Assembly: GCA_903854475.1 (NCBI GenBank)
Contig: CAINWP010000080.1
Span: 1,995-65,994 of the forward strand
Direction: 5' to 3'
From: an uncultured Verrucomicrobiota bacterium
GTDB taxonomy: Bacteria > Verrucomicrobiota > Verrucomicrobiia > Limisphaerales > UBA9464
Length of the DNA: 64,000 bases
Shown here piece after piece: positions 12,082 to 51,741 of the stretch. The notes under the pieces are model-generated. The model searched no databases and was not told the origin of the DNA. It was given only the letters and a program-made list of their open reading frames with translations. The position numbers and the translations under genes are program-made. The number at the start of each line of letters is the position of its first letter. The first letter of the stretch is position 1.

Positions 12082-12606
12082 TTAATTTAGACTTGGGGCC
12101 ACTGCGGTTCCGTCTGACTGGAGGTCAACGGTCACCTCAGAGGCCGTCAAAGAAATCTTGGGGGTTCGAACCGAACGAGCCTGCTGAACCAGACCATTGG
12201 GCAAGTGGCGTCCTGCCAAGGTGGCCAAGCTTGTGCCGGCAAAAACTTCTTTCATCCGCTCCTGAGCCTCGGCCAACAAACCACACAGCGCACAACCACT
12301 ACTGTGTTCACAGCCCACATCGATTTCGAGGCATCGCTGTAGAGCGATTGGCCCCTCGATGGACTCCAAGATCTCAAGCACGGTGATATCAGAGGCTGGA
12401 CGGGTGAGGTAGAAGCCCCCACCGGACCCGCGGGTCGAGCCCACCAAGCCCGACTTGCTGAGATTCTGGAAAATTTTACCCAGAAAACTTTTCGGGACAC
12501 ACTCTTCTTCACAGAGGATGTCGATCATGACCACCTCGCCCAAAGGACGGCGAGAAAGGGCAATTAGCCCTAAAACCCCGTATTCTCCTGCTTTGGTGAT
12601 TTGCAT
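12082..12606 (-). CDS. Rrf2-family transcriptional regulator (IscR-like)
   Basis: MQITKAGEYGVLGLIALS... winged-helix N-terminus, GGGFYLTRPASDITVLEILESIEG, and a Cys cluster CEHSSGCALC. It heads the iscU/desulfurase operon. Confidence 0.85.
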   Translation of the reverse strand: MQITKAGEYGVLGLIALSRRPLGEVVMIDILCEEECVPKSFLGKIFQNLSKSGLVGSTRGSGGGFYLTRPASDITVLEILESIEGPIALQRCLEIDVGCEHSSGCALCGLLAEAQERMKEVFAGTSLATLAGRHLPNGLVQQARSVRTPKISLTASEVTVDLQSDGTAVAPSLN

Positions 12607-12614
12607 CCCTTGAA

Positions 12615-12633
12615 CCAGACCATTTCCGTCTGG
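12615..12633. promoter_or_regulatory. Inverted repeat CCAGAC-N7-GTCTGG just upstream of the Rrf2 gene start
   Basis: CCAGAC (12615-12620) and GTCTGG (12628-12633) are reverse complements and lie 9-27 bp from the ATG at 12606. The element CATTTCC/AGAC recurs at 12673-12685. Confidence 0.3.
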
Positions 12634-12705
12634 AATAAAATCAACGTACCCCCCTCCCCTGCACTGTCAAAACCATTTCCAGACCAAATTCATCTGATTC
12701 CCCAA

Positions 12706-12813
12706 AAAAGGGACAGGCTCTTCAAAAGGGACAGGCTCTTCAAAAGGGACAGGCTCTTCAAAAGGGACAGGCTCTTCAAAAGGGACAGGCTCTTCAAAAG
12801 GGACAGGCTTTTT
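12706..12813 (+). repeat. Tandem array, 6 x 18 bp, unit AAAAGGGACAGGCTCTTC (last copy degenerate)
   Basis: Read directly: five perfect head-to-tail units from 12706, and a sixth unit AAAAGGGACAGGCTTTTT. It lies in the Rrf2/nuoA divergent intergenic region. Confidence 0.95.
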
Positions 12814-12864
12814 TGAAGCGCTGGACTCAATGTCCACTTGCCGGGAAACGGCTTCGATCCCACC

Positions 12865-13260
12865 ATGTACCCATTGATGGATACTCAACTGAACCAGTAC
12901 CTTCCGGTGCTGATGCTGCTGTTCGTGGCTGCCAATTTTGCCGCTGGAACCTTGGCCGTGTCCGTGTTGCTCGGGAAATCAGGCCGTCGGACTCAAACCA
13001 AAGACATCCCCTACGAGTGCGGAATGTTGCCGCAGGGCGAGGGCAGCGCTCGACTCAGCATTAAGTTCTATCTAGTCGCCCTGCTATTCGTCCTGTTCGA
13101 TATCGAGGTAGTTTTCATGTACCCGTGGGCTGTGACTTTCAAAGAACTGGCCCGGACGGATCTGGCACTCGGCCTCGGCGGGATGCTTTCTTTCTTGGGA
13201 ATCGTCTTTGTCGGATACGTCTACGCCGTCAAAAAACGCGCGTTTGACTGGAAGAGCTGA
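12865..13260 (+). CDS. nuoA: NADH-quinone oxidoreductase subunit A
   Basis: PYECGMLPQGEGSARLSIKFYLVALLFVLFDIEVVFMYPWAV aligns with the NuoA/NdhC core. The first ATG is at 12865; the ORF track begins at TTG 12838. Confidence 0.85.
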   Translation: MYPLMDTQLNQYLPVLMLLFVAANFAAGTLAVSVLLGKSGRRTQTKDIPYECGMLPQGEGSARLSIKFYLVALLFVLFDIEVVFMYPWAVTFKELARTDLALGLGGMLSFLGIVFVGYVYAVKKRAFDWKS

Positions 13261-13429: not shown

Positions 13430-16400
13430 ATGAACTCGTACCCGTCCGTACCGAACTCACTCTACCGGCCTGACTTCGAACACGACGCGTGTGGCGTCGG
13501 TTTTGTCGCCAACATCAAGGGAACCCAGACTCATTCTGTGGTCCAACAAGGGCTCCAAATTCTTCGGAATCTGGACCACCGCGGCGCGTGCGGCTGTGAA
13601 GCCAACACAGGCGACGGTGCCGGCATCCTCATCCAGATGCCTCACGAGTTCTTGGCCAGCGAAACCCAGCGTGTGGGTATCACCCTGCCGCCCCCCGGTC
13701 AGTACGGCGTGGGCATGGTGTACTTGCCCCGGGATCCGCGGCAGCGCCGCAAGCTGGAGATGGCCTTCGAGAAGATCATTCAATCGGAAGGCCAAGATCT
13801 CTTGGGCTGGCGCACCGTGCCAACTGACAACAGCTCGCTCGGCGAGACTGCGAAGTCTTCGGAACCCCATGTCCGACAGGTCTTCATCGGCAAGAACCCG
13901 GAACTCAGCGACGACTTAGCCTTCGAGCGGAAACTCTACGTCATCCGCAAGCGCTCGTACTCCGAGATTCGTTGCTCCACCAAGGACGGCGCCGGGTACT
14001 GGTACATTTGCAGCCTTTCCTGCCGCACCCTCGTGTACAAAGGAATGCTGATGACCGAACAGGTCGACAAGTACTTCCTAGACCTCAAGAACCCAGACAT
14101 GAAGTCGGGTCTGGCACTGGTCCACTCCCGCTTCAGCACCAACACGTTCCCGAGTTGGGCCCGTTCGCACCCCTACCGCTACATCGCTCACAACGGCGAA
14201 ATCAACACGCTGCGCGGCAACATCAACTGGATGCGGGCCCGCGAGGCTCTGTTCCAGTCCGACGCCTTCGGTGACGACATCCAGAAGATCCTGCCTATCG
14301 TCGACCCTGACGGCAGCGACTCGGCCATGTTCGACAACGTACTGGAATTGCTAGTACTGGCCGGCCGCTCCTTGCCGCACGCGATGATGATGATGATCCC
14401 AGAACCCTGGGCCAATCATGAGTCGATGAGCGACGAGAAGAAGGCGTTCTACGAGTATCACTCCTGCCTGATGGAACCGTGGGATGGCCCTGCCTGCGTG
14501 GCCTTCACCGACGGTGTGCGCATCGGAGCGTCTCTGGACCGCAACGGCCTGCGCCCGTCGCGCTATTACGTCACCAAGGACGACCAGGTCATCATGGCCT
14601 CAGAGGTCGGCGTGCTCGATATTGCTCCGGAGAACATCGCCCATAAGGGCCGTCTCCAACCCGGCCGCATGTTCTACATCGACACGGCCCTGGGCCGGAT
14701 CGTGGATGATGCCGAGATCAAGGAACAGATCGCCATTGAACAACCCTATCGTCAGTGGCTTAACCAGCACTTGATCGAGTTGTCCTCGTTGCCCGACCCG
14801 GAGCACTTGCCCGAGCCCGGCCACTCCACGGTTTTGCAACGCCAACAGGCCTTTGGTTATTCTTTCGAAGACCTGAAAATGCTGCTGGTACCCATGGCCC
14901 GCGACGGCGTTGAAGCCATCGGCTCGATGGGAACCGACACGCCCTTGGCGGTGTTGTCCAACCACTCGCAGCTGCTCTACAACTACTTCCACCAGCTCTT
15001 CGCGCAGGTCACCAATCCTCCGATCGACTGTATCCGCGAAGAGATTGTTACCAGCGCGATCACCACCATCGGCTCCGAAAAGAACCTGCTCACCCCGTCA
15101 GCGGAGAGCTGCCACCTCATCGAGTTAAAGTCGCCGGTGCTGACTAACGAAGAATTAGCCAAGCTCAAGAGCATCAATCAGTCGGGCTACAAGTCGGTCA
15201 CGCTCCCCATCCTTTACAAGGTGGATAAGGGCTCCAAGGGACTTGAGAAGGCCCTGAAAGACCTCTTCAAGGCGGCCTCCAAGGCCATCCACGACGGGGT
15301 CAATATTCTGATCCTGTCTGACCGCGGACTCAGCGCCAAGAGCGCGGCCATCCCGGCATTGCTGGCTGTCAGCGGCCTCCACCATCACTTGATTCGCGAA
15401 GGCGACCGCAACCGCGTCGGGCTCGTTCTCGAGTCGGGCGAACCGCGCGAGGTTCATCACTTCTCGCTGCTCATCGGCTACGGGTGCGGAGCGATTAATC
15501 CGTATCTGGCCTTCGAGTCGATCGACGACATGATCCATCAGGGGTTGCTCACCAACGTCGACTCCAAAACCGCCCACAAGAACTTCGTCAAGTCCGCAGT
15601 CAAGGGCGTCATCAAGGTGGCCTCCAAGATGGGTATCTCAACCATCCAGTCCTACCGCGGCGCCCAAATCTTCGAGGCGGTCGGTATTAACGAGGCCGTC
15701 GTGGATCGCTACTTCACCTGGACACCGACCCGCGTGGAAGGTGTCGGTATGGAGGAGATCGCCCGCGACATCGAAATTCGTCACCGGACCGCCTTCCCCG
15801 ACCGGAAGTCGCAGAACCCCACGCTCGATGTCGGTGGCCGGTATCAGTGGCGTCGCGATGGCGAGTACCACCTGTTCAATCCCGATACGGTGCACAAGCT
15901 GCAAAAAGCGGTGCGCAACGGAGATTTCAAGGCCTTCCAAGACTACTCCAAGTCGGTCAATGAGCAGTTCAAGCATTGGGCCACACTGCGAGGACTCCTC
16001 GACTTCAAGTCGTCGAGCCCCATCCCCATCGAAGAGGTTGAATCGGTCGAGTCCATCGTGAAGCGGTTCAAGACCGGCGCGATGAGCTATGGATCCATCT
16101 CCCAGGAGGCCCATGAGACCCTAGCCATCGCCATGAACCGTCTGGGCGGCAAGTCCAACACCGGCGAGGGCGGCGAAGATCCGGAACGTTTTATTCCCCT
16201 GCCCAACGGCGACTCCAAGAATTCCGCCATCAAGCAAGTGGCATCCGGGCGCTTTGGTGTGACCAGCCAGTATCTGGTCAGCGCCCAAGAACTCCAGATC
16301 AAGATGGCCCAGGGCGCCAAGCCCGGTGAGGGCGGCCAATTGCCAGGCACCAAGGTGTACCCATGGGTGGCCAAGACCCGTCACTCGACCCCGGGTGTCG

Positions 16401-18019
16401 GTCTGATTTCCCCGCCGCCGCACCACGACATCTATTCCATCGAGGATCTGGCCGAGTTAATCCACGATCTAAAGAACGCCAACATCCACGCCCGGATCAG
16501 CGTCAAGCTGGTGTCCGAGGTGGGCGTCGGCACCATCGCCGCCGGCGTGGCCAAGGCGCATGCCGACGTGGTGCTCATCTCGGGTTACGATGGCGGCACG
16601 GGTGCTTCACCCCAGACTTCCATCAAGCACGCGGGCATTCCTTGGGAACTCGGCTTGGCCGAAACTCACCAGACCCTGGTGCTCAACAACCTGCGCTCGC
16701 GCATCGTGGTCGAGACCGACGGTCAACTGAAAACCGGCCGCGACGTGGTCATCGCTGCGCTGCTGGGTGCCGAGGAGTTCGGATTTGCCACCGCGCCCCT
16801 GGTGTCACTGGGCTGCATCATGATGCGCGTGTGTCATCTGAACACGTGCCCTGTGGGCGTCGCCACTCAAGACCCTGAACTGCGCAAGCGCTTCACCGGC
16901 GAACCGGAGCATGCGATCAACTTCATGCGCTTCATTGCTCAGGAAGTTCGCGAGATCATGGCGCAACTCGGTTTCCGCTCCATCACCGAGATGGTGGGCC
17001 GCACCGACCGGCTCGAGCCCCGGAAGGCCATCGAGCACTGGAAGGCCAAGGGGGTCGACTTCAGCAAGATCCTCTATCAGCCGGAGGCCGGGCCCGAAGT
17101 CGGACGTTACTGCCAGATGATCCAAGATCACGGCATCGACAAATCGCTGGATATCACCCAGCTCCTTCCGTTGTGCCTACCCGCCATCGAGCGAGGAGAG
17201 AAGGTCAAAGCGACCCTTCCCATTCGCAACGTCAACCGCGTGGTCGGAACCATCACCGGCAGCGAGCTGACCCGCCAACGCGGTGCCGCCGGACTGCCAG
17301 AAGACACCATCCAAATCACCTTCCAAGGCAGTGCTGGTCAGAGTTTCGGCGCGTTCATGCCCAAGGGCATGTCCTTCACGCTCGAGGGCGATGCCAACGA
17401 CTACTTTGGTAAGGGCCTGAGCGGCGGCAAACTCATCTTGTATCCGCCGGCAGCCAGCACCTTTGCACCGGAAGAGAACATGATCGTCGGCAACGTTGCG
17501 TTGTATGGCGCGACCCAGGGTGAAGTCTTCATCCGCGGCATGGCGGGTGAGCGATTTGGCGTCCGCAATTCCGGCGTCAAGGCCGTCGTCGAAGCCGTGG
17601 GAGACCATGGCTGCGAGTACATGACCGGCGGAACGGTGGTCATTCTCGGACCGACCGGCCGCAATTTCGCAGCCGGCATGTCCGGTGGCGTTGCTTATAT
17701 CTACGACGAGGTCGGCGACTTCCCCTCCAAGTGCAACATGCAAATGGTCGCCTTGGAGAAGCTAGAAGAGTCCGATAACGCAGTGCTCCAGGAGATGCTC
17801 CAAAACCACGCGATCAACACCAAGAGCACCCGGGCCGCCTCCATCCTGAAGGACTGGAGCACCACGCAAGCGAAGTTCATCAAGGTAATGCCCCGCGACT
17901 ACAAGCGCGTGCTCACAGCGCTGCTCAAAGCCCAGGCCGATGGTCTCACGGGCGATGACGCACTGAATGCTGCCTTCGAAGCCAACTCCAAAGACGTCTC
18001 CCGGACTGGTGGGGGCTAA
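13430..18019 (+). CDS. gltB: Glutamate synthase large subunit
   Basis: 1529 aa. It has an N-terminal Ntn amidotransferase (DACGVGFVA), an FMN/3Fe-4S central domain, and a C-terminal GXGXG domain. Confidence 0.97.
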
Positions 18020-19974: not shown

Positions 19975-21894
19975 ATGTTCCCTCCGGCCCGCACCGTCTT
20001 GTCGCTGCTGCTGTCGTCACTGCTGTCTTCGACCCTGTTGCCCGCGATCCTCGAAGGTCAAACCTCCCGCCGGGCCAACGAATCCGGGGCAGCCCGATTG
20101 AAGGTAGACCTGTTGGGTGTCTTCGCCCATCCCGACGACGAAACCGGCGTGGCAGCCACCATCGCCTCGCTGAGCCATGGTTCTGGTCGTTCCATTGCCC
20201 ATGTCTACTGCACTCGGGGCGAAGGCGGAGGCAACATGGTGGGAACCCAGTCGGGACCGGCTCTAGGAATCCTGCGGGAGATCGAACTGCGGGACGCCCT
20301 TCGAGGACTGGGTGTGCAACAAGTGCATTTCCTCGATAAGGCCGACTTCGCCTACACCGAAAGTCTCGGTGTCACCCTAGAGCGATGGAACCACTCGGAC
20401 ACCCTCGGCCGCTTGGTTCGGGTTATCCGCACCTTGAGACCAGAGGTGGTGGTCACCATGAACCCCGCCCCGTCGCCCGGGCAGCACGGCAACCATCAAG
20501 CTGCCGGATGGCTAGCCACCGAGGCCTTCGAGGCCGCGGCGGATCCCAACCGATTTCCGGACCACCTGCGCCTGGAAGGCCTGTCCCCATGGCGACCGCG
20601 GAAGCTTTTTTATTCCGGGGCCGCCGCGAATCCGGGGCAGTCTTTGTCGATCGCGCTCACTCAGACCCTACCCGACGGACGCCGGCCGGTGAGCGTTGCC
20701 GCCGAGGCCCTGTCGAACCACCGATCCCAGGCATTTGGTTCCATTGCCCAGTCGCCGTGGTTTCGTCGCACCACCAACCAATGGTTCACCCCGGTTTGCA
20801 GCGTCCTGCCCATCCACCCCACCGAAACTGATCTCTTCCAAGGGCTTCCACTCCCCGAGGCTTTAGGAGCCTGTCCCCCGCGTTGGGATGGGTTTCCGGG
20901 GTTTCCGGTGCCGGAGACAACTGAAGACACCGACCTGTTTTTCGTTCCAAGACCTGCGGTGGCTCGTTACCGAGAGTTTGTCCGCGTCCACCGGATCGCC
21001 CATGCGGCCCAGTCCTTTCAGGCCGATGTCCCCGTCGTCGCCGGCCAAGAAACGAGCCTGTCCCTTTTCCGGGACCGTTCTTTAGCCCAGGCAACGGTGC
21101 AGTTCCAAACCCCACCCAGCTGGTCGGCGCGAGTAATATCGGGAGGTCGAGTGGGCGTCATGGCCCCGGCCACGGCCCGTGAGGACGTCACACTGCTGGC
21201 GAGGGTCGGTGACCACCGAACAATGGTCCGCCTGCACCCGGTGCCATCCCTGAAGGTCCCCAGAATCGCAGCACTCCCCTGGAATCAAAACAGCGAGGAC
21301 CCAGCCTGGAAGGCCTTGCCCATCACCACCATCGGGCCCGAGCAAGCCTGGCAAGGCCGCTCAGACGGCGCTTCAGACTGCAGTGGTCGATTCCGTTTAG
21401 GCCATGACGGCAAACACCTCTGGGTGGAAATCCAGATCCGGGATGACCATGTGGTTTCCAACATCGAAACCAATGACATCAAGGGGCATTGGCGGAGCGA
21501 TTCGGTAGAGCTTTGTGTGGACCCCTCAGCTGGTGCTGAACACACGCTGGCTTGCTGGAAAACCGGTATCTTTCCCTTCGACCGTTCCGGCCAGGTCCGG
21601 GGTGCCCGCGATGCCGATGCCAATCCTGGCCCGCTAGAAACCCATTCTCCGGGCACCCGCCTGCTTTCGTGGCGCACTGCTGATGGTTACACTCTCCGTG
21701 CGCTCATCCCGTTGCGGGAGTTGGGATTGAAAGGAAAGTCCGGCGTCGGTGCTGGGTTCAATGTGTTGATCTATGACGGCGACAAGGTTGATGCCCAGCC
21801 CGGAGAAAACATCAACCGCACCCGACTGGCCTGGTCCCCACGACCCGGCGTTCAGGGACGGCCTGAAGATTGGGGACGGATCGTCCTGGAGTAG
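19975..21894 (+). CDS. Secreted PIG-L/LmbE-family deacetylase with C-terminal CBM9-like carbohydrate-binding domain
   Basis: Signal peptide and LLGVFAHPDDETGVAATIA (PIG-L motif). The C-terminal ~200 aa resemble CBM9/DOMON-like sugar-binding modules (LWVEIQIRDDHV...DSVELCVDP...FNVLIYDGD). Confidence 0.75.
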   Translation: MFPPARTVLSLLLSSLLSSTLLPAILEGQTSRRANESGAARLKVDLLGVFAHPDDETGVAATIASLSHGSGRSIAHVYCTRGEGGGNMVGTQSGPALGILREIELRDALRGLGVQQVHFLDKADFAYTESLGVTLERWNHSDTLGRLVRVIRTLRPEVVVTMNPAPSPGQHGNHQAAGWLATEAFEAAADPNRFPDHLRLEGLSPWRPRKLFYSGAAANPGQSLSIALTQTLPDGRRPVSVAAEALSNHRSQAFGSIAQSPWFRRTTNQWFTPVCSVLPIHPTETDLFQGLPLPEALGACPPRWDGFPGFPVPETTEDTDLFFVPRPAVARYREFVRVHRIAHAAQSFQADVPVVAGQETSLSLFRDRSLAQATVQFQTPPSWSARVISGGRVGVMAPATAREDVTLLARVGDHRTMVRLHPVPSLKVPRIAALPWNQNSEDPAWKALPITTIGPEQAWQGRSDGASDCSGRFRLGHDGKHLWVEIQIRDDHVVSNIETNDIKGHWRSDSVELCVDPSAGAEHTLACWKTGIFPFDRSGQVRGARDADANPGPLETHSPGTRLLSWRTADGYTLRALIPLRELGLKGKSGVGAGFNVLIYDGDKVDAQPGENINRTRLAWSPRPGVQGRPEDWGRIVLE

Positions 21895-30526: not shown

Positions 30527-31207
30527 TCAGTACTCACCGACCGCAGCGGCGTGTCCACTCAAGATGGCCACGCCGGCACTGGTGCCCAGCCGATTGGCTC
30601 CGGCTTCCAGCATCGCCAAGGCCATGGCCGTGTCCCGGATACCGCCACTGGCCTTGACGCCCAAAGCGGAACCCACAGCCTGCCGCATGAGGCGGATGTC
30701 CTCGACGGTGGCCCCGCCGGAACCAAATCCAGTGGAAGTCTTCACGAAACGGGCTCCTGCCTCGACGCTGAGGGAGCAGGCACGAAGTTTTTCTTCTTCC
30801 GAGAGCAGACACGTCTCGAGGATAACCTTCACCCAAACACCCTGAGCAGCCTCCACCACATCCCGAATTTCCCGAAACACGGCGCGGTCATCCCCGTCCT
30901 TGAGTCGTCCGATATTCAGGACCATATCAATTTCTTGAGCTCCGAGATCGATGGCCACCTCGGTCTCATACCGCTTGGAATCACCGTCCATAGCACCGAG
31001 AGGGAATCCGACCACCGCCGCCACCTTCACGTCCGAACCCTCCAACAAGGCAGCAGCCTGAGCCACCCGACTCCCGTGGACACAGACACTCCAGAACTGG
31101 TGTTCCAGTGCCTCGGCGCACAATTTGGCAACATCCGCCGCCCGCGCCTCCGGCTTGAGCAGGGTGTGATCGATGTGACGGGCCAGATCCCGGACGCTCC
31201 ATTGCAT
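30527..31207 (-). CDS. deoC: Deoxyribose-phosphate aldolase
   Basis: [21 protein letters not shown]..., VCVHG..., VKVILE..., and FVKTSTGF (Schiff-base Lys context). The start is set at ATG 31207. The ORF-track extension to 31390 only translates the upstream repeat array. Confidence 0.9.
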
Positions 31208-31251
31208 TCCGGCAATGTCACGGTCTTCCGCTGAGGGTTCAAGCTTGCAAG

Positions 31252-31372
31252 GGAGCCTGTCCCTTAGAAGGAGCCTGTCCCTTAGAAGGAGCCTGTCCCT
31301 TGGAATGTCCCATGGAAGGAGCCTGTCCCTTGGATGGAGCCTGTCCCCTTGGAAGGAGCCTGTCCCTTGGAA
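31252..31372 (-). repeat. Tandem array, about 6.5 x 18 bp; unit on the minus strand TTCCAAGGGACAGGCTCC (plus strand GGAGCCTGTCCCTT + 4-nt spacer)
   Basis: Read directly: GGAGCCTGTCCCTT at 31252, 31270, 31288, 31318 and 31355, GGAGCCTGTCCCCTT at 31336, and a partial copy TGTCCCATGGAA at 31306. The core is the same as in the 12706-12813 array. Confidence 0.95.
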
Positions 31373-31388
31373 AGAAGCGTATAGATGC

Positions 31389-31416
31389 AAAAAGCCGGCC
31401 TCTGGATGAGGCCGGC
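31389..31416 (-). terminator. Intrinsic terminator downstream of the TonB-dependent receptor
   Basis: 9-bp stem GCCGGCCTC / GAGGCCGGC with a 5-nt loop, followed on the minus strand by TTTTT. Confidence 0.7.
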
Positions 31417-31456
31417 CCTGTCTATCTGTTGACCCAGCGCGCGGTGGCGCAGTGGT

Positions 31457-33583
31457 TTAGAACTTCTTGCTCAACTCGATGTAGTAGAAACGGCCGCGCA
31501 AGTCGGCGAACTGACGAGCAACGTTACTCTCGAAGGCCGAGAAGACAGCCGGCGGGCGCTCGTCGAACACATTGTTGATACCAAAGCTGAGGTTGGCTTC
31601 CACCTTCGGGATGGTGTACCGCGTGCGAAGGTCGATCGTGTTGTAGTCACGACCCGAACGGGTGTCGGGAGCGTTCCCATCAATCGTCTCGTAGTTCTGT
31701 CCACTCTGATCTTCACGATAGGCTGAGGTGAAGTTCCAGGCGACAGCAGCATAGTAACGCTCGTACTCCCAAGCGACCGACGCCGTGGCGCGATATTCGG
31801 GAAATCCCACATCGGACATGGCTGCACCGGAGGCCCAGAAACTTCCAAGGTAATCGATCGGAGCCGAACCCGGGAAGTTCTCCATGTTCATGGACAGCAC
31901 CTTGGTGGCATTGCCAGCCAGAAAGAGCTTACCCATCGAGGTCTCGATCTCCTGGGTCATCGACAAGTCGAGACCGTCGGTCGAACGGGTCCCCGTGTTG
32001 ATCGGACCCACGTTGCGAATCTGGTCGATATCGCCGGTCGTCGGATCCACGGCTACCTGGGCACCCAGGGGATTGGCCGCGCTCGGAGTCGCAGAAGCCC
32101 CATAGGGGTTCTTGGCATTGCCGGAGCCACCGTTCATGGCCCATTGGTTGACAATGTACTGCTCGCTCGAGAACGGAATGCCTGTCTGAGTGATCTTGTA
32201 GTAGTCAAGACCCACGGTGAAACCCTTGAGGAAGTTCGGGGAGAACTTCGCTCCAATGAGCCAATTCTCGGCCTGTTCGGGCTTCAAGTTGGGGTTGTTG
32301 ACGGCGAGGACGCCATTCTGGGGCTGGGTTCGGATCTGAGTGATCGGATTGTAAACCTCAGGAAAATCCTGACCACCCGCCGGTTGATAAATCGAAGCCA
32401 GTGACGGAGCGATGAAACCCTGACCGTAAGATCCGCGGATCACCACCTGCTTCTCGATCGGCTGCCAACGGAAGTTCACGCGCGGCTTAGCACCGGTGTC
32501 ACCCGCGTCGGAAAACTGCTCATAACGGACCGCAGTGCCCACAGTGAAGGATTCCATCCCGGTGAACTTGAGATCGTTACCAAAGATGGGTACCTGAACC
32601 TCGCTATACACAGCGTCGGTCTGGCGGCCGGCAGCCCACTGGACGGCCGTATTGAACGGAGCCACCGAGCCATTCTGAAGAGCGAAGTCGGGGGCGATGT
32701 CGATCGAGTCACGACGGGTCTGGGCACCGAGGGAGGCTTGGATGGCCCCACCGGGCAAGTCGAACACTTCGCCACGAACCAAACCGTCGAACTGCTGGGT
32801 AACCCAAGCGTTTTGCTGGGTGGCCGAACCTTTGAATCCGTTGAGGACGTCCGCTGAATTCACCGCCGAGGTGCCATTGATCGGAGTATAACCGAACGGA
32901 TTGAACGCGGACGATGCATCACCGGAATTCAGAGCCGCCTGATATTTATCGGTCAGCACGCCGCCGTTGATGACGGTGTCGTTCTGGGTGCGGTCGTACA
33001 GGAAGGCCGTTTCCCAATTCCAGGTCGATTCACCGATGCGGCCACGGAGGCCGGCCACGGTGTGGATGCTCTGGTACAGGTCGTTGTAAATGCGCGGCCC
33101 GTTCTCGACCGGGCGGTAGGTGATGTTGAACTTGTCCGTCGCGGCGCTGCCCGGGAACACCTGCTGCCACCAGTGGTTGCCTGAAGACATCGTATAGCCG
33201 CCCAGCGGACCAGGGGCCAGCGTGTACGACGACTTGTTGCTCATGTAGTAGGCGTCGGCGAAGGCCTCGAGGTGCTCTCCGAAGAGTTGGTGAGCCACCG
33301 AGGTGTCGAAGCCATAGCGATCGTGCGGACGATACGCCGTGGTGTAATAACCATAGGGGAACCCTGCACTGGTTCCCGGGACGAGGCTTTCATTGCCTCC
33401 GTAACGCAGCTGGGCACCCACCGGCAGAACGCCGCGCAAGGCGGCCTCGGCTGCGGTCCGGGCGGCGGTGACTTGTGACGCGGCCGTCGCCTTGGAAGTG
33501 TCTACATACGCGCTGGGATCGAACTTGTTTCCAGCCACTACGATGGGGAATTGGAGTCCACCCACGGTCACCGAAGCCGGCAC
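31457..33583 (-). CDS. TonB-dependent receptor, beta-barrel part (3' portion of a frameshift-split gene)
   Basis: Barrel-type sequence ending in the canonical ...RGRFYYIELSKKF. Its reading frame stays open upstream to 33717 and there reads as receptor-like sequence (AFSNTRGLTNASQVPTFTGP). Confidence 0.8.
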   Translation of the reverse strand: MPASVTVGGLQFPIVVAGNKFDPSAYVDTSKATAASQVTAARTAAEAALRGVLPVGAQLRYGGNESLVPGTSAGFPYGYYTTAYRPHDRYGFDTSVAHQLFGEHLEAFADAYYMSNKSSYTLAPGPLGGYTMSSGNHWWQQVFPGSAATDKFNITYRPVENGPRIYNDLYQSIHTVAGLRGRIGESTWNWETAFLYDRTQNDTVINGGVLTDKYQAALNSGDASSAFNPFGYTPINGTSAVNSADVLNGFKGSATQQNAWVTQQFDGLVRGEVFDLPGGAIQASLGAQTRRDSIDIAPDFALQNGSVAPFNTAVQWAAGRQTDAVYSEVQVPIFGNDLKFTGMESFTVGTAVRYEQFSDAGDTGAKPRVNFRWQPIEKQVVIRGSYGQGFIAPSLASIYQPAGGQDFPEVYNPITQIRTQPQNGVLAVNNPNLKPEQAENWLIGAKFSPNFLKGFTVGLDYYKITQTGIPFSSEQYIVNQWAMNGGSGNAKNPYGASATPSAANPLGAQVAVDPTTGDIDQIRNVGPINTGTRSTDGLDLSMTQEIETSMGKLFLAGNATKVLSMNMENFPGSAPIDYLGSFWASGAAMSDVGFPEYRATASVAWEYERYYAAVAWNFTSAYREDQSGQNYETIDGNAPDTRSGRDYNTIDLRTRYTIPKVEANLSFGINNVFDERPPAVFSAFESNVARQFADLRGRFYYIELSKKF

Positions 33584-33618
33584 TGGCCCCGTGAAGGTCG
33601 GAACCTGCGAGGCATTGG

Positions 33619-34464
33619 TCAGTCCTCGGGTATTCGAGAAGGCCGGAGTCCAATGCCATTGGCCACGTTCAGCACGTCTCCAGAAGCGCTGGTCACCGAA
33701 TGAGTGCCGAAGCTGCGCTTATTGAAGAAAAGCCCTGGGTTGGAGGTGCCCGAAACGTTGCTGCCAGCGGGGAAACTGCGATCGCGGTCGATGCTCAGCA
33801 GGTCGTTGGCAGAATTGTACTCCGCGGAGAAGAACGCACGGGTCTTCTCATTGGAGGTGCCGAAGTTGACCTGGAAGCGGCGCTGGGAGATGTCCTTGTC
33901 CATCGTGTTCCCGTAGAACGCGCTGAACTGGGTGCCCTGGAAGTTCTTCTTAAGCTTAATGTTCACCACGCCTGCGACGGCATCCGTACCGTAGATGGCA
34001 CCCGCGCCATCATTGAGCACTTCGATGCTCTCGATGGCTGCCTGGGGAATCATATTCAGGTCGGAAGTCGAGGTACGACGACCGTCCACCAGCAGCAGGG
34101 TCGCATTGCCCGGAAGTCCACGAAGACCTACGAAAGACTGTCCCGAACCACCATTTCCGTAACCTTCATTAAGGTTTCCGGTGCCACCCATCTGGGGCAG
34201 CTTGAGGCGAAATACATCGCTCAAATTGGCGAACCCACCATTGACCGGTGAGGCCATGTCGATGGCAGTGACAGATAAAGATCCTTCCGCCTCGGCTCCC
34301 GAAAGGAGGGATCCGGTGACGACCGTAGACTCGAGGGTCTTGGCCGCAGGATCAGCATTCTGGGCCCAAAGAGCGGGCACAGCAATCAATTGGGATCCGA
34401 GCCCGACCGTGATGGCACTCCGGAGAACTGTGCCCCGGAACTGGCGATAGTTGTGGTACGACAT
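33619..34464 (-). CDS. TonB-dependent receptor, signal peptide + plug part (5' portion of a frameshift-split gene)
   Basis: Signal-like MSYHNYRQFRGTVLRSAITVGLGSQLIAVPALWAQ, and plug motifs VGLRGLPGNATLLLVDGRR and IESIEVLNDGAGAIYGTDAVAGVVNI. It ends at TGA 33619-33621, in a different frame from the barrel part. Confidence 0.8.
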   Translation of the reverse strand: MSYHNYRQFRGTVLRSAITVGLGSQLIAVPALWAQNADPAAKTLESTVVTGSLLSGAEAEGSLSVTAIDMASPVNGGFANLSDVFRLKLPQMGGTGNLNEGYGNGGSGQSFVGLRGLPGNATLLLVDGRRTSTSDLNMIPQAAIESIEVLNDGAGAIYGTDAVAGVVNIKLKKNFQGTQFSAFYGNTMDKDISQRRFQVNFGTSNEKTRAFFSAEYNSANDLLSIDRDRSFPAGSNVSGTSNPGLFFNKRSFGTHSVTSASGDVLNVANGIGLRPSRIPED

Positions 34465-34623
34465 AGGTTGGTTGGTCTGAAACATCCTGGTCACATTTAT
34501 TTGACAGCGTGGATTCCCTACTACGGAAAACCCGCTTCGCAATCGGTGCAAGCGATTTTGTTTGAGAACGAATAAAAAGCATCCCAAAGCCTTGATCCCT
34601 CGCAAAACGACAAAATCGTCCGG

Positions 34624-49448: not shown

Positions 49449-50183
49449 GTGTTGGGCACTTGGATTAATGCAGTTGCCGGGGTCGGAGTGCTTCTATGGG
49501 TTCGCCGCCCCCTGGGCACAGAGAATAAGCCTCTCGATTTGGGACGATTCCGCTGGGGAGCCGCTGGTTTGGCGGCACTCATCGGTGTGACCGGGATCAT
49601 CCATGCCCTGCCCTCCTCACTATCCGGCGCGATCCGCTATTTGGGCATTGCGCTCTTCGGCCTGTTGTTGGGCAACCTCACCGGCCGAATTTTGGGCCTG
49701 CAGCGGGGCCTGGACGCCTGGGGGAGGAACCTTTCGGGTCATCTGCCCAAGCCTACCGGAACACCCACCGATGTGCCGGGAGCGTTGTCCATCGGGGCTC
49801 TTCTGGCACTCAACCCATTGCTCATCCCCGCCGCCGTCCAGGACGGACTGGAACATCGGTGGGTCGGACTGGCCTTGAAGTCAGTATTGGACGCGGTCGC
49901 TCTCCACGCGTGGGTTCGGAGCCTGTCCCCAATCCGGTGGAGCCTGCCCCTTGTGATGCTGGGGGTCATCCTTCTCTGGCAGACCTGCTGGACGGCGGGC
50001 GCGGCAGCCTTGGCCAGTTGGCTCCAAGCCCAGGGCGTTTCCGATGCACTCATGACGGCTTGCAGCCTGCTGATTCTTTGCAGCGCCCCAGCTATCGCCG
50101 GTGTGCGTAGAGCCGCTCTAGCCAATTTGTTGCCGGCGCTGGTCTGGATTCCCGCCCTGGCATTCTGGCTGCGCGGCGGATGA
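49449..50183 (+). CDS. Polytopic membrane protein, DUF554-like
   Basis: The (M)LGTWINAVAGVG start pattern and LALKSVLDAVAL segment resemble DUF554 (YdfK-type). Hydrophobic throughout; GTG start. Confidence 0.5.
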   Translation: MLGTWINAVAGVGVLLWVRRPLGTENKPLDLGRFRWGAAGLAALIGVTGIIHALPSSLSGAIRYLGIALFGLLLGNLTGRILGLQRGLDAWGRNLSGHLPKPTGTPTDVPGALSIGALLALNPLLIPAAVQDGLEHRWVGLALKSVLDAVALHAWVRSLSPIRWSLPLVMLGVILLWQTCWTAGAAALASWLQAQGVSDALMTACSLLILCSAPAIAGVRRAALANLLPALVWIPALAFWLRGG

Positions 50184-50999: not shown

Positions 51000-51741
51000 C
51001 GCCGCGGTCGGCACGGACATACTGCAAGAAGCGCTCATCACCCACCGTCCTCACGCGGACCAACCGGAAGCGCACGGCATCGGCCAGGCAGGCCGCCAAC
51101 GGGCCGTCTGCGATCGTGGGGGCCGCCTGTCCTCCAAAGATCCGAGGTACCCAGGTGAGTCGAATCTCATCGACACAGTCTGCGGCCAAAAGGGTGGCAT
51201 TCACCCGTCCCCCGCCTTCCGCAACCAAGCGACGAATTCCATGGCGCCCGGCCAACCAGGCCAAGGCGGCCGGAAAATCGACCTGACTGCCGGGCGAACT
51301 CCAAACCTCCGCTCCGAGATCACGCAATCGTTGCAGATTGGGTTTTGAAGCGTTTCCAGCACTGAAAATGACGATTGGAGCCCCTGGACGCTTCCACAGT
51401 TCTGCCTCAGAGGAAAGAGAGCCGGAGCCACTCACCACCACTCGGACGGGCTCGGGAGCCAACCCTGCTCGCCGCCGGGTCGCCTTATGTTCCGAGGAGC
51501 CTGTCCCCAAAGTCGCTCCGGTTTCTTCGACGGTTCGCGCTCCGCACACGAGGGCGTCGGCAGTAGCCCGAAGGGCATAGAGGGCTTTTTTGTCGTGAGG
51601 GCTCCCAAAAGTGGTCACTTCGCGGCCGGCGGTAGCGACCTTGCCATCGGCCGTCATGGCCATGTTAATGACGACGTAGGGTCGCTGCCCGGCTTCTGGC
51701 AAACCAGGATGCGATTTAATGGAGGAACATGGCGTCGCCAT
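50959..51741 (-). CDS. RibD C-terminal domain reductase (DHFR-like fold)
   Basis: RPYVVINMAMTADGKVA..., RRLVAEGGGRVNATLL, and DEIRLTWVPRIFGG. The start is uncertain (ATG 51741 chosen). The 3' end overlaps the convergent PSCyt1 gene by 41 bp. Confidence 0.75.
   Translation of the reverse strand: MATPCSSIKSHPGLPEAGQRPYVVINMAMTADGKVATAGREVTTFGSPHDKKALYALRATADALVCGARTVEETGATLGTGSSEHKATRRRAGLAPEPVRVVVSGSGSLSSEAELWKRPGAPIVIFSAGNASKPNLQRLRDLGAEVWSSPGSQVDFPAALAWLAGRHGIRRLVAEGGGRVNATLLAADCVDEIRLTWVPRIFGGQAAPTIADGPLAACLADAVRFRLVRVRTVGDERFLQYVRADRGVISHPAESTLPPV

Follow-up and report, generated by a model that had tools for sequence, protein, structure and literature searches.

A hypervariable tandem array upstream of deoC in freshwater Verrucomicrobia amplifies an 11-nt DNA word that appears to be under selection

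Introduction

What is the tandem array that stands between a TonB-dependent receptor gene and deoC in an uncultured Verrucomicrobiota bacterium, and does it act in the protein, in a transcript, or in the DNA itself? The array (31252..31372, minus strand; hereafter array 2) lies in a stretch of 64,000 nucleotides (nt) (contig CAINWP010000080.1, positions 1,995 to 65,994), which was analyzed at its full length and is called the window; coordinates are those of the window unless a locus is named. A first-pass annotation, made from the sequence alone, had paired array 2 with a second array upstream of nuoA (array 1; 12706..12809, plus strand) and had proposed that the two represent one portable family of cis-elements. 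Here, we compared array 2 with orthologous loci and with related repeats in other genomes. The comparison indicated that the conserved part is an 11-mer, GGGACAGGCTC, rather than the period of the repeat or its distance to the gene. This word may be the site of a predicted DNA-binding factor, a reading that we hold tentatively and weigh against its rivals below.

Structure and coding status of the deoC array

Array 2 is composed of seven units of 18, 19, 18, 12 (truncated), 18, 18, and 18 nt with the consensus TTCCAAGGGACAGGCTCC. Both direct reading and Tandem Repeats Finder, which returned a period of 18, 7.0 copies, 82% matches, and a score of 163 for positions 31252-31372, agreed with the initial count of six full copies and one partial. 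The core of the units is the 11-mer GGGACAGGCTC, the last copy of which occupies 31253-31263, and this 11-mer is common to array 1. Array 1 lies between nuoA and a divergent gene for an Rrf2-family regulator (12082-12606, minus strand; assigned by Pfam) and contains 5.8 perfect units of AAAAGGGACAGGCTCTTC with a period of 18. That both arrays are built on a common core had been claimed from the outset, and the 13-mer AAGGGACAGGCTC is indeed present in each. When ≤2 mismatches were allowed, AAGGGACAGGCTC was found 19 times in the window vs. 1.8 times expected, a count reached in 0 of 100 shuffles.

The array occupies a tandem intergenic region. Upstream of it is the co-oriented barrel open reading frame (ORF) of the TonB-dependent receptor (31457..33583, minus strand; assigned by Pfam), the intrinsic terminator of which, a hairpin with a T-run (31389..31419, minus strand), directly precedes the array and is conserved in orthologues. 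The hairpin, GGGCCGGCCTC-ATCCA-GAGGCCGGC followed by TTTTT, is readable in the sequence and folds strongly, and the array begins right after it, as the annotation had stated; a simple terminator scan did not flag the hairpin at 31389-31419. Downstream of the array, the co-oriented deoC coding sequence (CDS; 30527..31207, minus strand) encodes a protein of 226 amino acids (aa) with a Pfam DeoC match (E=4.5e-19), and the gap between the array and its ATG at 31207 is 44 nt.

An ORF model of deoC that extends to 31390 would make the array an N-terminal repeat extension of DeoC. An open frame does run from a TTG at 31390 through the array into deoC, and one member of the repeat family (locus L090) is genuinely translated as SKGQAP linker repeats. 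However, the 19-nt and 12-nt units shift the repeat frame within array 2. Orthologous arrays include units of 16, 17, and 20 nt and vary in copy number from strain to strain, and the deoC ATG is separated from the array by a conserved promoter-like element. Furthermore, the Pfam DeoC domain begins at residue 12 of the short form that starts at ATG 31207, and gene callers applied to near-identical contigs likewise gave a DeoC of 226 aa. Units of 16, 17, 19, and 20 nt are common among the intergenic arrays, one nuoA array is crossed by no open frame, and such frame-breaking units rule out translation of the intergenic array. The extended protein is therefore barely conceivable, and the long model proved to be, as the first-pass annotation held, an artefact of reading through the array. 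The features of a coding repeat, namely multiple-of-3 units in a genic frame, are absent from array 2 and were found only at L090, at a second locus (L007), and in unrelated matches outside Verrucomicrobia.

These two loci carry the word in a different setting. The L090 gene (42-3377 of that locus) encodes a multidomain protein of 1111 aa with an in-frame array (approximately 1244-1442), whose units of 18, 21, 24, and 27 nt are read as SKGQAP/TSTKGQA linker repeats, and the same gene carries two more isolated cores. The upstream flank of L007 is similar to that of L090, and its array is in frame within a long open frame, with other linker codons and the same core.

The receptor gene upstream of array 2 is itself split (33584-33621, minus strand): the Plug-domain ORF (33619-34605) stops at a TGA, and the barrel ORF resumes in another frame. 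The same receptor on a near-identical contig (L199) is one ORF of 1012 aa. The split stems either from an error of assembly or from a frameshift or pseudogene of the strain.

Variation among orthologous loci

As a core-independent test, DeoC orthologues were drawn from metagenomes by protein similarity alone, and their upstream regions were read. Apart from L131, L132, and L137, the orthologues with 88-99% identity had GGGACAGGCT cores in the interval from the conserved terminator to deoC; these three keep the promoter and have no exact core, and L132 has a one-mismatch copy. Orthologues with ≤72% identity lacked both the element and the gene context. The number of cores at orthologous deoC sites ranged from 1 (L123) to 17 or more (17 in L122 and L128), and nuoA-site arrays contained 3-12 copies across species. 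Copy number varied even at the strain level: sister contigs that encode an identical phosphoglucomutase and match the window at 99.4-99.8% identity over 3.1 kb had 2, 2, and 4 cores plus a degenerate unit, vs. 6 cores in the window. Many metagenome contigs terminate within the deoC array.

The period and the linkers varied as well. Consensus units of the orthologous deoC arrays, as determined by Tandem Repeats Finder, measured 16, 17, 18, 20, and 22 nt, and start-to-start spacings of cores of 20 nt (L120 and L135), 31 nt (L121), and 57 nt (L133) were found. GGGACAGGC was invariant in the units of the deoC sites, position 10 was T or A, and the linkers differed at up to 4-5 of their 7 positions. 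At the array sites in general, species differ from one another in linkers such as TCCAA, TTCAA, CCCAA, CACAA, CAAAA, CGGGA, and TGTTG. Since linker and period drift while GGGACAGGC stays fixed, the core is the constrained part of the unit. The 18-nt period is common to both arrays of the window, yet the periods of 16-22 nt in the deoC orthologues show that it is no constraint; it is a matter of common descent and not a requirement.

The annotation had further stressed that period, core, orientation, and distance to the gene all match between the two arrays. The core and the 18-nt period do match, and the distance does not (44 vs. 67 nt). The nuoA start that is conserved among orthologues is the ATG at 12877, 67 nt past array 1, so that the reported agreement of 45 and 52 nt is only approximate and coincidental. 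A fixed distance to the start codon and a fixed 18-nt lattice were both rejected, as the orthologues contradict both.

The drift of the linkers also bears on a structural explanation, in which alternating purine and pyrimidine blocks upstream of promoters would adopt a non-B DNA structure such as a G-quadruplex, an i-motif, or a triplex. Each unit does alternate a purine-rich AAGGGACAGG with a pyrimidine CTCCTTCC, and at the tandem sites the sense strand is the one rich in G. However, the G-runs are short, the loops would measure 10-11 nt, the loop or pyrimidine linker varies freely, and the selected single cores described in the next section cannot form such structures. We consider this explanation very improbable.

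Conservation of the core outside arrays

We then asked how the 11-mer is distributed in the DNA of the clade. In 534 kb of clade DNA, exact GGGACAGGCTC occurred 426 times, whereas permuted 11-mers occurred 0.57 times on average (maximum, 9). With the arrays masked (507 kb), 15 exact copies were counted, some of which are one orthologous site in several species, vs. a mean of 0.58 (maximum, 3) for each of the 33 one-mismatch variants, which amounts to a 26-fold excess.

Four isolated cores were located in the window, each within a genuine gene, and the density in the window is approximately one core locus per 13 kb. Two are antisense to a PIG-L/CBM9 gene (20867..20877 and 21054..21064, minus strand) and are read as G-A-C-P and T-S-L-S-L, respectively. 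The third is a two-unit mini-array antisense to a DUF554 gene (49919..49952, minus strand), with one exact core and one core with 1 mismatch at a spacing of 21 nt, read as R-S-L-S-P. The fourth is in the sense orientation in a RibD_C gene (51497..51507, minus strand) and is read as G-T-G-S. Given these differing reading frames, no protein motif explains the intragenic cores.

The PIG-L gene allowed a test at synonymous sites. We compared eight orthologous PIG-L CDSs with that of the window, at a nucleotide identity of 71-86% and a third-position identity of 47-69%. Core positions 3-11, which read GCCTGTCCC on the coding strand, were identical at the two sites in 9 of 9 sequences, synonymous positions included. 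All of the 48 synonymous third-position comparisons within the cores were identical while the neighbouring codons vary, a count that gives no formal probability because the PIG-L sequences are phylogenetically related, although the difference from the flanking codons is stark; changes occurred only at the two end positions of the core. The 1.9-kb PIG-L/CBM9 gene holds 2-3 cores in several species, and some of the orthologues (L202, L203, L206, and L209) have an extra sense-strand core or a third antisense copy. The sequence comparisons indicate that the DNA word itself is maintained by selection across the clade.

This conservation speaks against a dispersed minisatellite, neutral or selfish, that would be comparable to STRR or MIRU and in which the conservation of the core would be only apparent and due to homogenisation, common descent, or slippage bias. 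Blocks of identical units, degenerate edge units, and rapid copy turnover between near-identical strains are typical of slippage or unequal exchange; in addition, assemblies break at the arrays, and one array is in frame as a linker in a gene. However, homogenisation cannot account for isolated cores kept at synonymous sites in nine of nine orthologues, for the excess over one-mismatch neighbours, or for linkers that diverge beside an unchanged core in orthologous arrays. The synonymous-site conservation at PIG-L rules out a purely neutral minisatellite, and we judge the minisatellite explanation as a whole to be unlikely.

Promoter-like elements next to the arrays

The first-pass annotation had suggested looking for a common promoter just downstream of the arrays, and pattern searches and an alignment of orthologues yielded -35/-10-like elements with a fixed 17-nt spacer at deoC, MOSC-domain, and nuoA sites. 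At deoC, a search with the pattern TTGAAN-N16-18-GANATT-N5-8-ATG found 16 distinct deoC sequences, all in the form TTGAA[CG]-N17-GA[CG]ATT-N6-ATG; the spacer and the 6-nt stretch vary in sequence and never in length. From this conservation, the -35 hexamer in the window would be TTGAAC (31237..31242, minus strand), 10 nt downstream of the last core, and the -10 hexamer GACATT (31214..31219, minus strand), 6 nt before the deoC ATG. Six distinct orthologues of the MOSC site showed TTGCCA-N17-GACGAT-N6-ATG, and the alignment of nuoA orthologues suggested TTGCCG-N17-CACCAT (CAnCAT in orthologues; 12838..12866, plus strand), 10 nt before ATG 12877. The element is retained in the deoC orthologues without arrays.

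We infer that the deoC, MOSC, and nuoA elements are sigma-70-type promoters with leaderless or nearly leaderless mRNAs, which suggests that such mRNAs may be used in this Verrucomicrobia lineage. A -10 hexamer only 6 nt before the deoC ATG implies a leaderless mRNA, and hence that array 2 lies upstream of the -35 hexamer. The nearest core stands 10-28 nt upstream of the predicted -35 hexamer at deoC, MOSC, and nuoA sites. In coordinates of the predicted promoters, the deoC cores are centred near -51, -69, -87, and so on, and the nearest core is near -58 at MOSC and near -68 at nuoA.

A generic scan for sigma-70 consensus promoters found no promoter in the region of deoC and its array, which is consistent with weak -10 hexamers. 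The array itself as a promoter was rejected: the consensus scan was empty, and comparison by eye with sigma-70, sigma-54, and extracytoplasmic-function (ECF) promoters gave no convincing match.

The position of these elements is also an argument against a role of the array in RNA. Transcribed arrays could act as leaders or as decoys with repeated single-stranded AAGGGA/ACAGG motifs for an RNA-binding protein, much as sponge RNAs do for CsrA. An A-N-GGA-like motif is present in each unit, the arrays are in the sense orientation at all four tandem sites, and array 2 is less structured than shuffled sequence, so that the motifs would be exposed. On the other hand, the ATG is separated from the array by the promoter-like element, whose spacings are fixed at 17 and 6 nt and which is retained where arrays are missing; array 2 begins right after an intrinsic terminator, and the selected intragenic cores are found on either strand relative to the mRNA. 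A search of the whole window against Rfam 15 returned no match at the gathering score, and the array region had only a chance match (E=0.49). An RNA role is thus highly improbable. A structured RNA was rejected separately, as the arrays fold worse than shuffled sequence (z = +2.08 and +0.76).

Two further features were seen at the nuoA site. Between the Rrf2 gene and array 1 are an inverted repeat, CCAGAC-N7-GTCTGG, and a second copy of CCATTTCCAGACC (12615-12633 and 12675-12692, respectively), both of which are conserved upstream of every nuoA-site array and are probably the operator sites of the Rrf2 regulator itself. In addition, nuoA (12877-13260) stands alone; the next gene is a large glutamate synthase gene, gltB (13430-18019), and not nuoB or the rest of a complex I operon.

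Distribution and genomic contexts of the array family

To delimit the family, we searched a single genome of each GTDB species for pairs of cores at a distance of 18 nt and obtained at least 114 stretches. Approximately 65 of these listed stretches came from at least 13-14 freshwater Verrucomicrobia metagenome-assembled genomes (MAGs), each a species representative. At least 6-7 contigs per MAG bore arrays, and many arrays were located at contig ends; most family loci are short MAG contigs, and orthologous loci are not independent samples. The proposal that the two arrays of the window belong to one dispersed non-coding family was thus confirmed, with many more members in at least 13 MAGs.

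Clustering of flanks and annotation assigned the array sites among the matches listed to approximately 14 groups, mostly orthologous across species. The genes downstream of the arrays are unrelated in function and include deoC, nuoA, yicC, hsp20, prfC, and genes for a MOSC-domain protein, a Gate/nucleoside-recognition protein, an ABC ATPase, a solute-binding protein, a DUF1559 pseudopilin, and a DUF362 protein. Across sites, the distance from array to gene ranged from approximately 18 to 385 nt, and the idea of a fixed distance had to be abandoned.

Neighbour orientation was checked by Pfam and by reading translations because gene calling based on GC content at third codon positions was noisy and overlooked even deoC. 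The resulting tally, which is approximate because gene calls were rough and only the matches listed were counted, comprised about 10 divergent, 4 tandem, and 0-1 convergent sites among the approximately 14 groups. Divergent partners included Rrf2 at nuoA, nusA at a gene of unknown type, glgB or an ABC ATPase at MOSC, an esterase at yicC, and others. The tandem sites are TonB receptor to deoC, cupredoxin-like to prfC, dnaG to hsp20, and NAD kinase to DUF1559. The divergent excess and the near-absence of convergent sites link the arrays to promoter-containing DNA. Co-orientation with the downstream gene, another claim of the annotation, was seen at both arrays of the window. In a divergent region such as that of array 1, however, an array is co-oriented with some gene by construction, so that only the four tandem sites are informative; the sense orientation at four of four is suggestive and too small a sample for significance.

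Two other properties ascribed to the family fared less well. The sites are conserved orthologous positions without an insertion signature, which lends no support to a portable element: when deoC sites with and without arrays were compared for such a signature, no clean empty site was found, as L131, L132, and L137 hold unrelated filler. The notion of a purely promoter-linked cis-element is weakened by the selected single cores inside genes and by the in-frame linker array.

A family beyond Verrucomicrobia was considered and rejected. The outside matches, found in Actinobacteria, Myxococcota, Magnetococcales, Planctomycetota, other groups, and four viral contigs, have multiple-of-3 units, mostly in long open frames that encode G/S/P/A-type linkers, and they appear to be coincidental coding repeats. 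Among them, loci of several Microbacterium genomes (L004 and L021) and other actinobacterial loci hold the same 11-mer in 18-nt tandem repeats with multiple-of-3 units, e.g., GGGACAGGCTCAGCGACC, which resemble coding or low-complexity repeats and which we took as coincidence.

Some loci departed from the common picture in other respects. Only in L096 does the array border on a convergent gene, at the 3' end of that gene. Variant cores were mixed with the standard core in L014 (1-200; GGGGCAGACTC) and in L096 (1-124; G-rich units of the GGGGGGCACTGGCTC type). A series of loci (L001, L008, L023, L027, L032, L039, L054, L062, L070, L072, L076, L084, L090, L098, L101, and L110) is deposited as 'Akkermansia muciniphila', yet the isolate or contig names of the MAGs, of the form MaE-, MaH-, and MiE-, pattern with lake and reservoir MAGs, and names that refer to lakes, ponds, and rivers suggest a freshwater origin. 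To judge from the repeats and flanks, which group with freshwater Verrucomicrobia, this label looks wrong.

Proposed function of the word

We tentatively read array 2 as a non-coding, hypervariable amplification of GGGACAGGCTC that would be bound by a predicted DNA-binding factor and would form a landing pad upstream of the deoC promoter, an explanation that we find plausible although short of probable. GGGACAGGCTC would be the recognition site of a sequence-specific factor, and slipped-strand mispairing would expand a single selected site into landing pads with multiple sites at places that tolerate additional DNA, i.e., in promoter-containing intergenic gaps and in in-frame protein linkers. 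At deoC, the bound factor could modulate or insulate the promoter, with the copy number setting the occupancy. The arrays fill the free intergenic space, which at deoC extends from the terminator to approximately 10 nt before the -35 hexamer. Reading of the word on DNA is the likeliest mode, given that selected copies are found on both strands with respect to transcription and that the predicted transcripts do not include the arrays.

Several observations weigh against this proposal. A near-invariant 11-bp word is more specific than most transcription-factor sites, selected intragenic copies are unexpected for a promoter-specific regulator, and the genes downstream of the arrays have no common function. 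Spacings of 16-22 nt, and also of 20, 31, and 57 nt, rule out a fixed cooperative lattice, and the array is dispensable for the promoter, given that L131, L132, and L137 keep the promoter without an exact core. Moreover, the arrays occupy the only free space between terminator and promoter, so that their position could just reflect tolerance of insertions, and the evidence from orientation consists of four sites.

Some of these observations are accommodated by the main rival, in which the 11-mer is a genome-wide 'self' word of the DUS/USS or Chi/KOPS type, kept by biased uptake, recombination, or a translocase, with the arrays as by-products of slippage. The 26-fold excess outside arrays, the presence within genes regardless of strand and frame, with conservation at synonymous sites, the constant spelling across at least 13 species, the unrelated downstream genes, and the orthologous sites that keep a promoter without an array all speak for such a word. 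Single cores were also on the G-rich strand in 4 of 4 cases in the window and in 19 of 26 in pooled loci, which are short and non-independent; this bias is weak, being little above the compositional expectation for a G-rich word. The arrays showed no clear replichore polarity: 23 of 60 lay on the strand that is locally richer in G, in similarly short and non-independent loci. A KOPS- or Chi-like polarity is therefore doubtful, since it was not seen in the arrays and the weak bias of single cores is explicable by composition. DUS and USS occur approximately once per kb, and the word, at approximately one locus per 13 kb, is far sparser. It does not form inverted pairs at terminators, and its arrays are hardly ever in convergent intergenic regions (0-1 of approximately 14). 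DUS, USS, Chi, and KOPS are not known to form tandem arrays. The self word accounts equally well for the conservation inside genes and for the lack of relation among the downstream genes, and it fits the low density, the tandem layout, and the non-polarity of the arrays less well, and we regard it as rather unlikely.

A bolder interpretation, possible and at present doubtful, is that GGGACAGGCTC is the word of a new genome-wide DNA-reading system, such as a nucleoid or transcription factor of global reach or a signal for uptake or self-marking. The arrays would then tune the promoters of housekeeping genes as rheostats or titration pads. Evolvable promoter rheostats or titration pads, if real, would be a regulatory architecture undescribed in bacteria, and the combination of a word kept at synonymous sites with its amplification into strain-variable arrays adjoining promoters seems to be undescribed as well.

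Almost nothing is known of gene regulation and genome architecture in these abundant uncultured lake bacteria, and an 11-base word fixed at silent codon positions offers a bait with which its reader could be sought. This same word is expanded into strain-variable arrays beside the promoters of core metabolic genes. The arrays, if they do tune expression, would provide rapid heritable variation in housekeeping functions between strains; should the word serve in uptake or recombination, this would be the phylum's first indication of such a system. In practical terms, the arrays break metagenome assemblies and make gene callers over-extend ORFs such as the long deoC model.

Comparison with known repeat systems

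Searches of the literature with the 11-mer in either orientation matched only unrelated papers and primers, and a topical search found nothing relevant. This is in line with the initial impression that the element is not a described one, as neither Rfam nor the papers searched contained it.

Three known systems were rejected as identities of the array. A DnaA-box cluster was dismissed since the word has 5 of 9 matches by eye to the actinobacterial DnaA box and lacks the critical CACA. Iterons or partition repeats do not suit the neighbours, which are the TonB receptor gene and deoC, the Rrf2 gene and nuoA, and other unrelated housekeeping genes, and not an origin, rep, or par. CRISPR arrays have 25-40-nt repeats with unique spacers, whereas the units here are contiguous 18-nt units with 7-nt linkers that are mostly identical within an array.

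Among systems with a regulatory role, the head-to-tail asymmetric cores next to promoters, in which the number of repeats would set occupancy, are by analogy reminiscent of the met-boxes of MetJ, the direct-repeat units of Streptomyces PhoP, the DnaA-box clusters of datA, iterons, and centromere repeats. The spacing, however, is variable and out of helical phase (16-22 nt, and 20, 31, and 57 nt at one orthologous site), in contrast to the MetJ, PhoP, and iteron repeats, and the family differs from tandem operator arrays in its unrelated sequence, in its strain-level copy variation, and in that binding is a prediction. The TAAA tract of Neisseria nadA is likewise a slippage-prone, strain-variable repeat upstream of a promoter that could tune expression; here, by contrast, the unit is 18 nt with an information-rich core, and the genes are housekeeping genes rather than genes for surface antigens.

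With DUS, USS, Chi, and KOPS, the word shares the over-representation of a short exact sequence that is conserved across related species and kept in genes in several frames. DUS and USS copies often form inverted pairs that act as terminators. The present word differs from them in a roughly ten-fold lower density, in its arrangement as direct repeats, in its absence from the terminator upstream of deoC, and in the lack of inverted terminator pairs, and it differs from Chi and KOPS in forming tandem arrays without clear replication polarity.

The closest resemblance in layout is to STRR and MIRU-VNTR repeats: one family of units forms tandem arrays at many dispersed, mostly intergenic loci, is polymorphic in copy number between strains, is confined to a single clade, and has a largely unknown function. 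STRR are heptamers (7 nt) of heterocystous cyanobacteria, and MIRU are 40-100-nt repeats of mycobacteria. With its 18-nt unit, its core GGGACAGGCTC, and its Verrucomicrobia hosts, the family described here is of the same kind and a member of neither. It also differs from both in that only the 11-nt core is conserved, that single intragenic cores appear to be under selection at synonymous sites, and that the arrays lie upstream of predicted promoters and not within operons.

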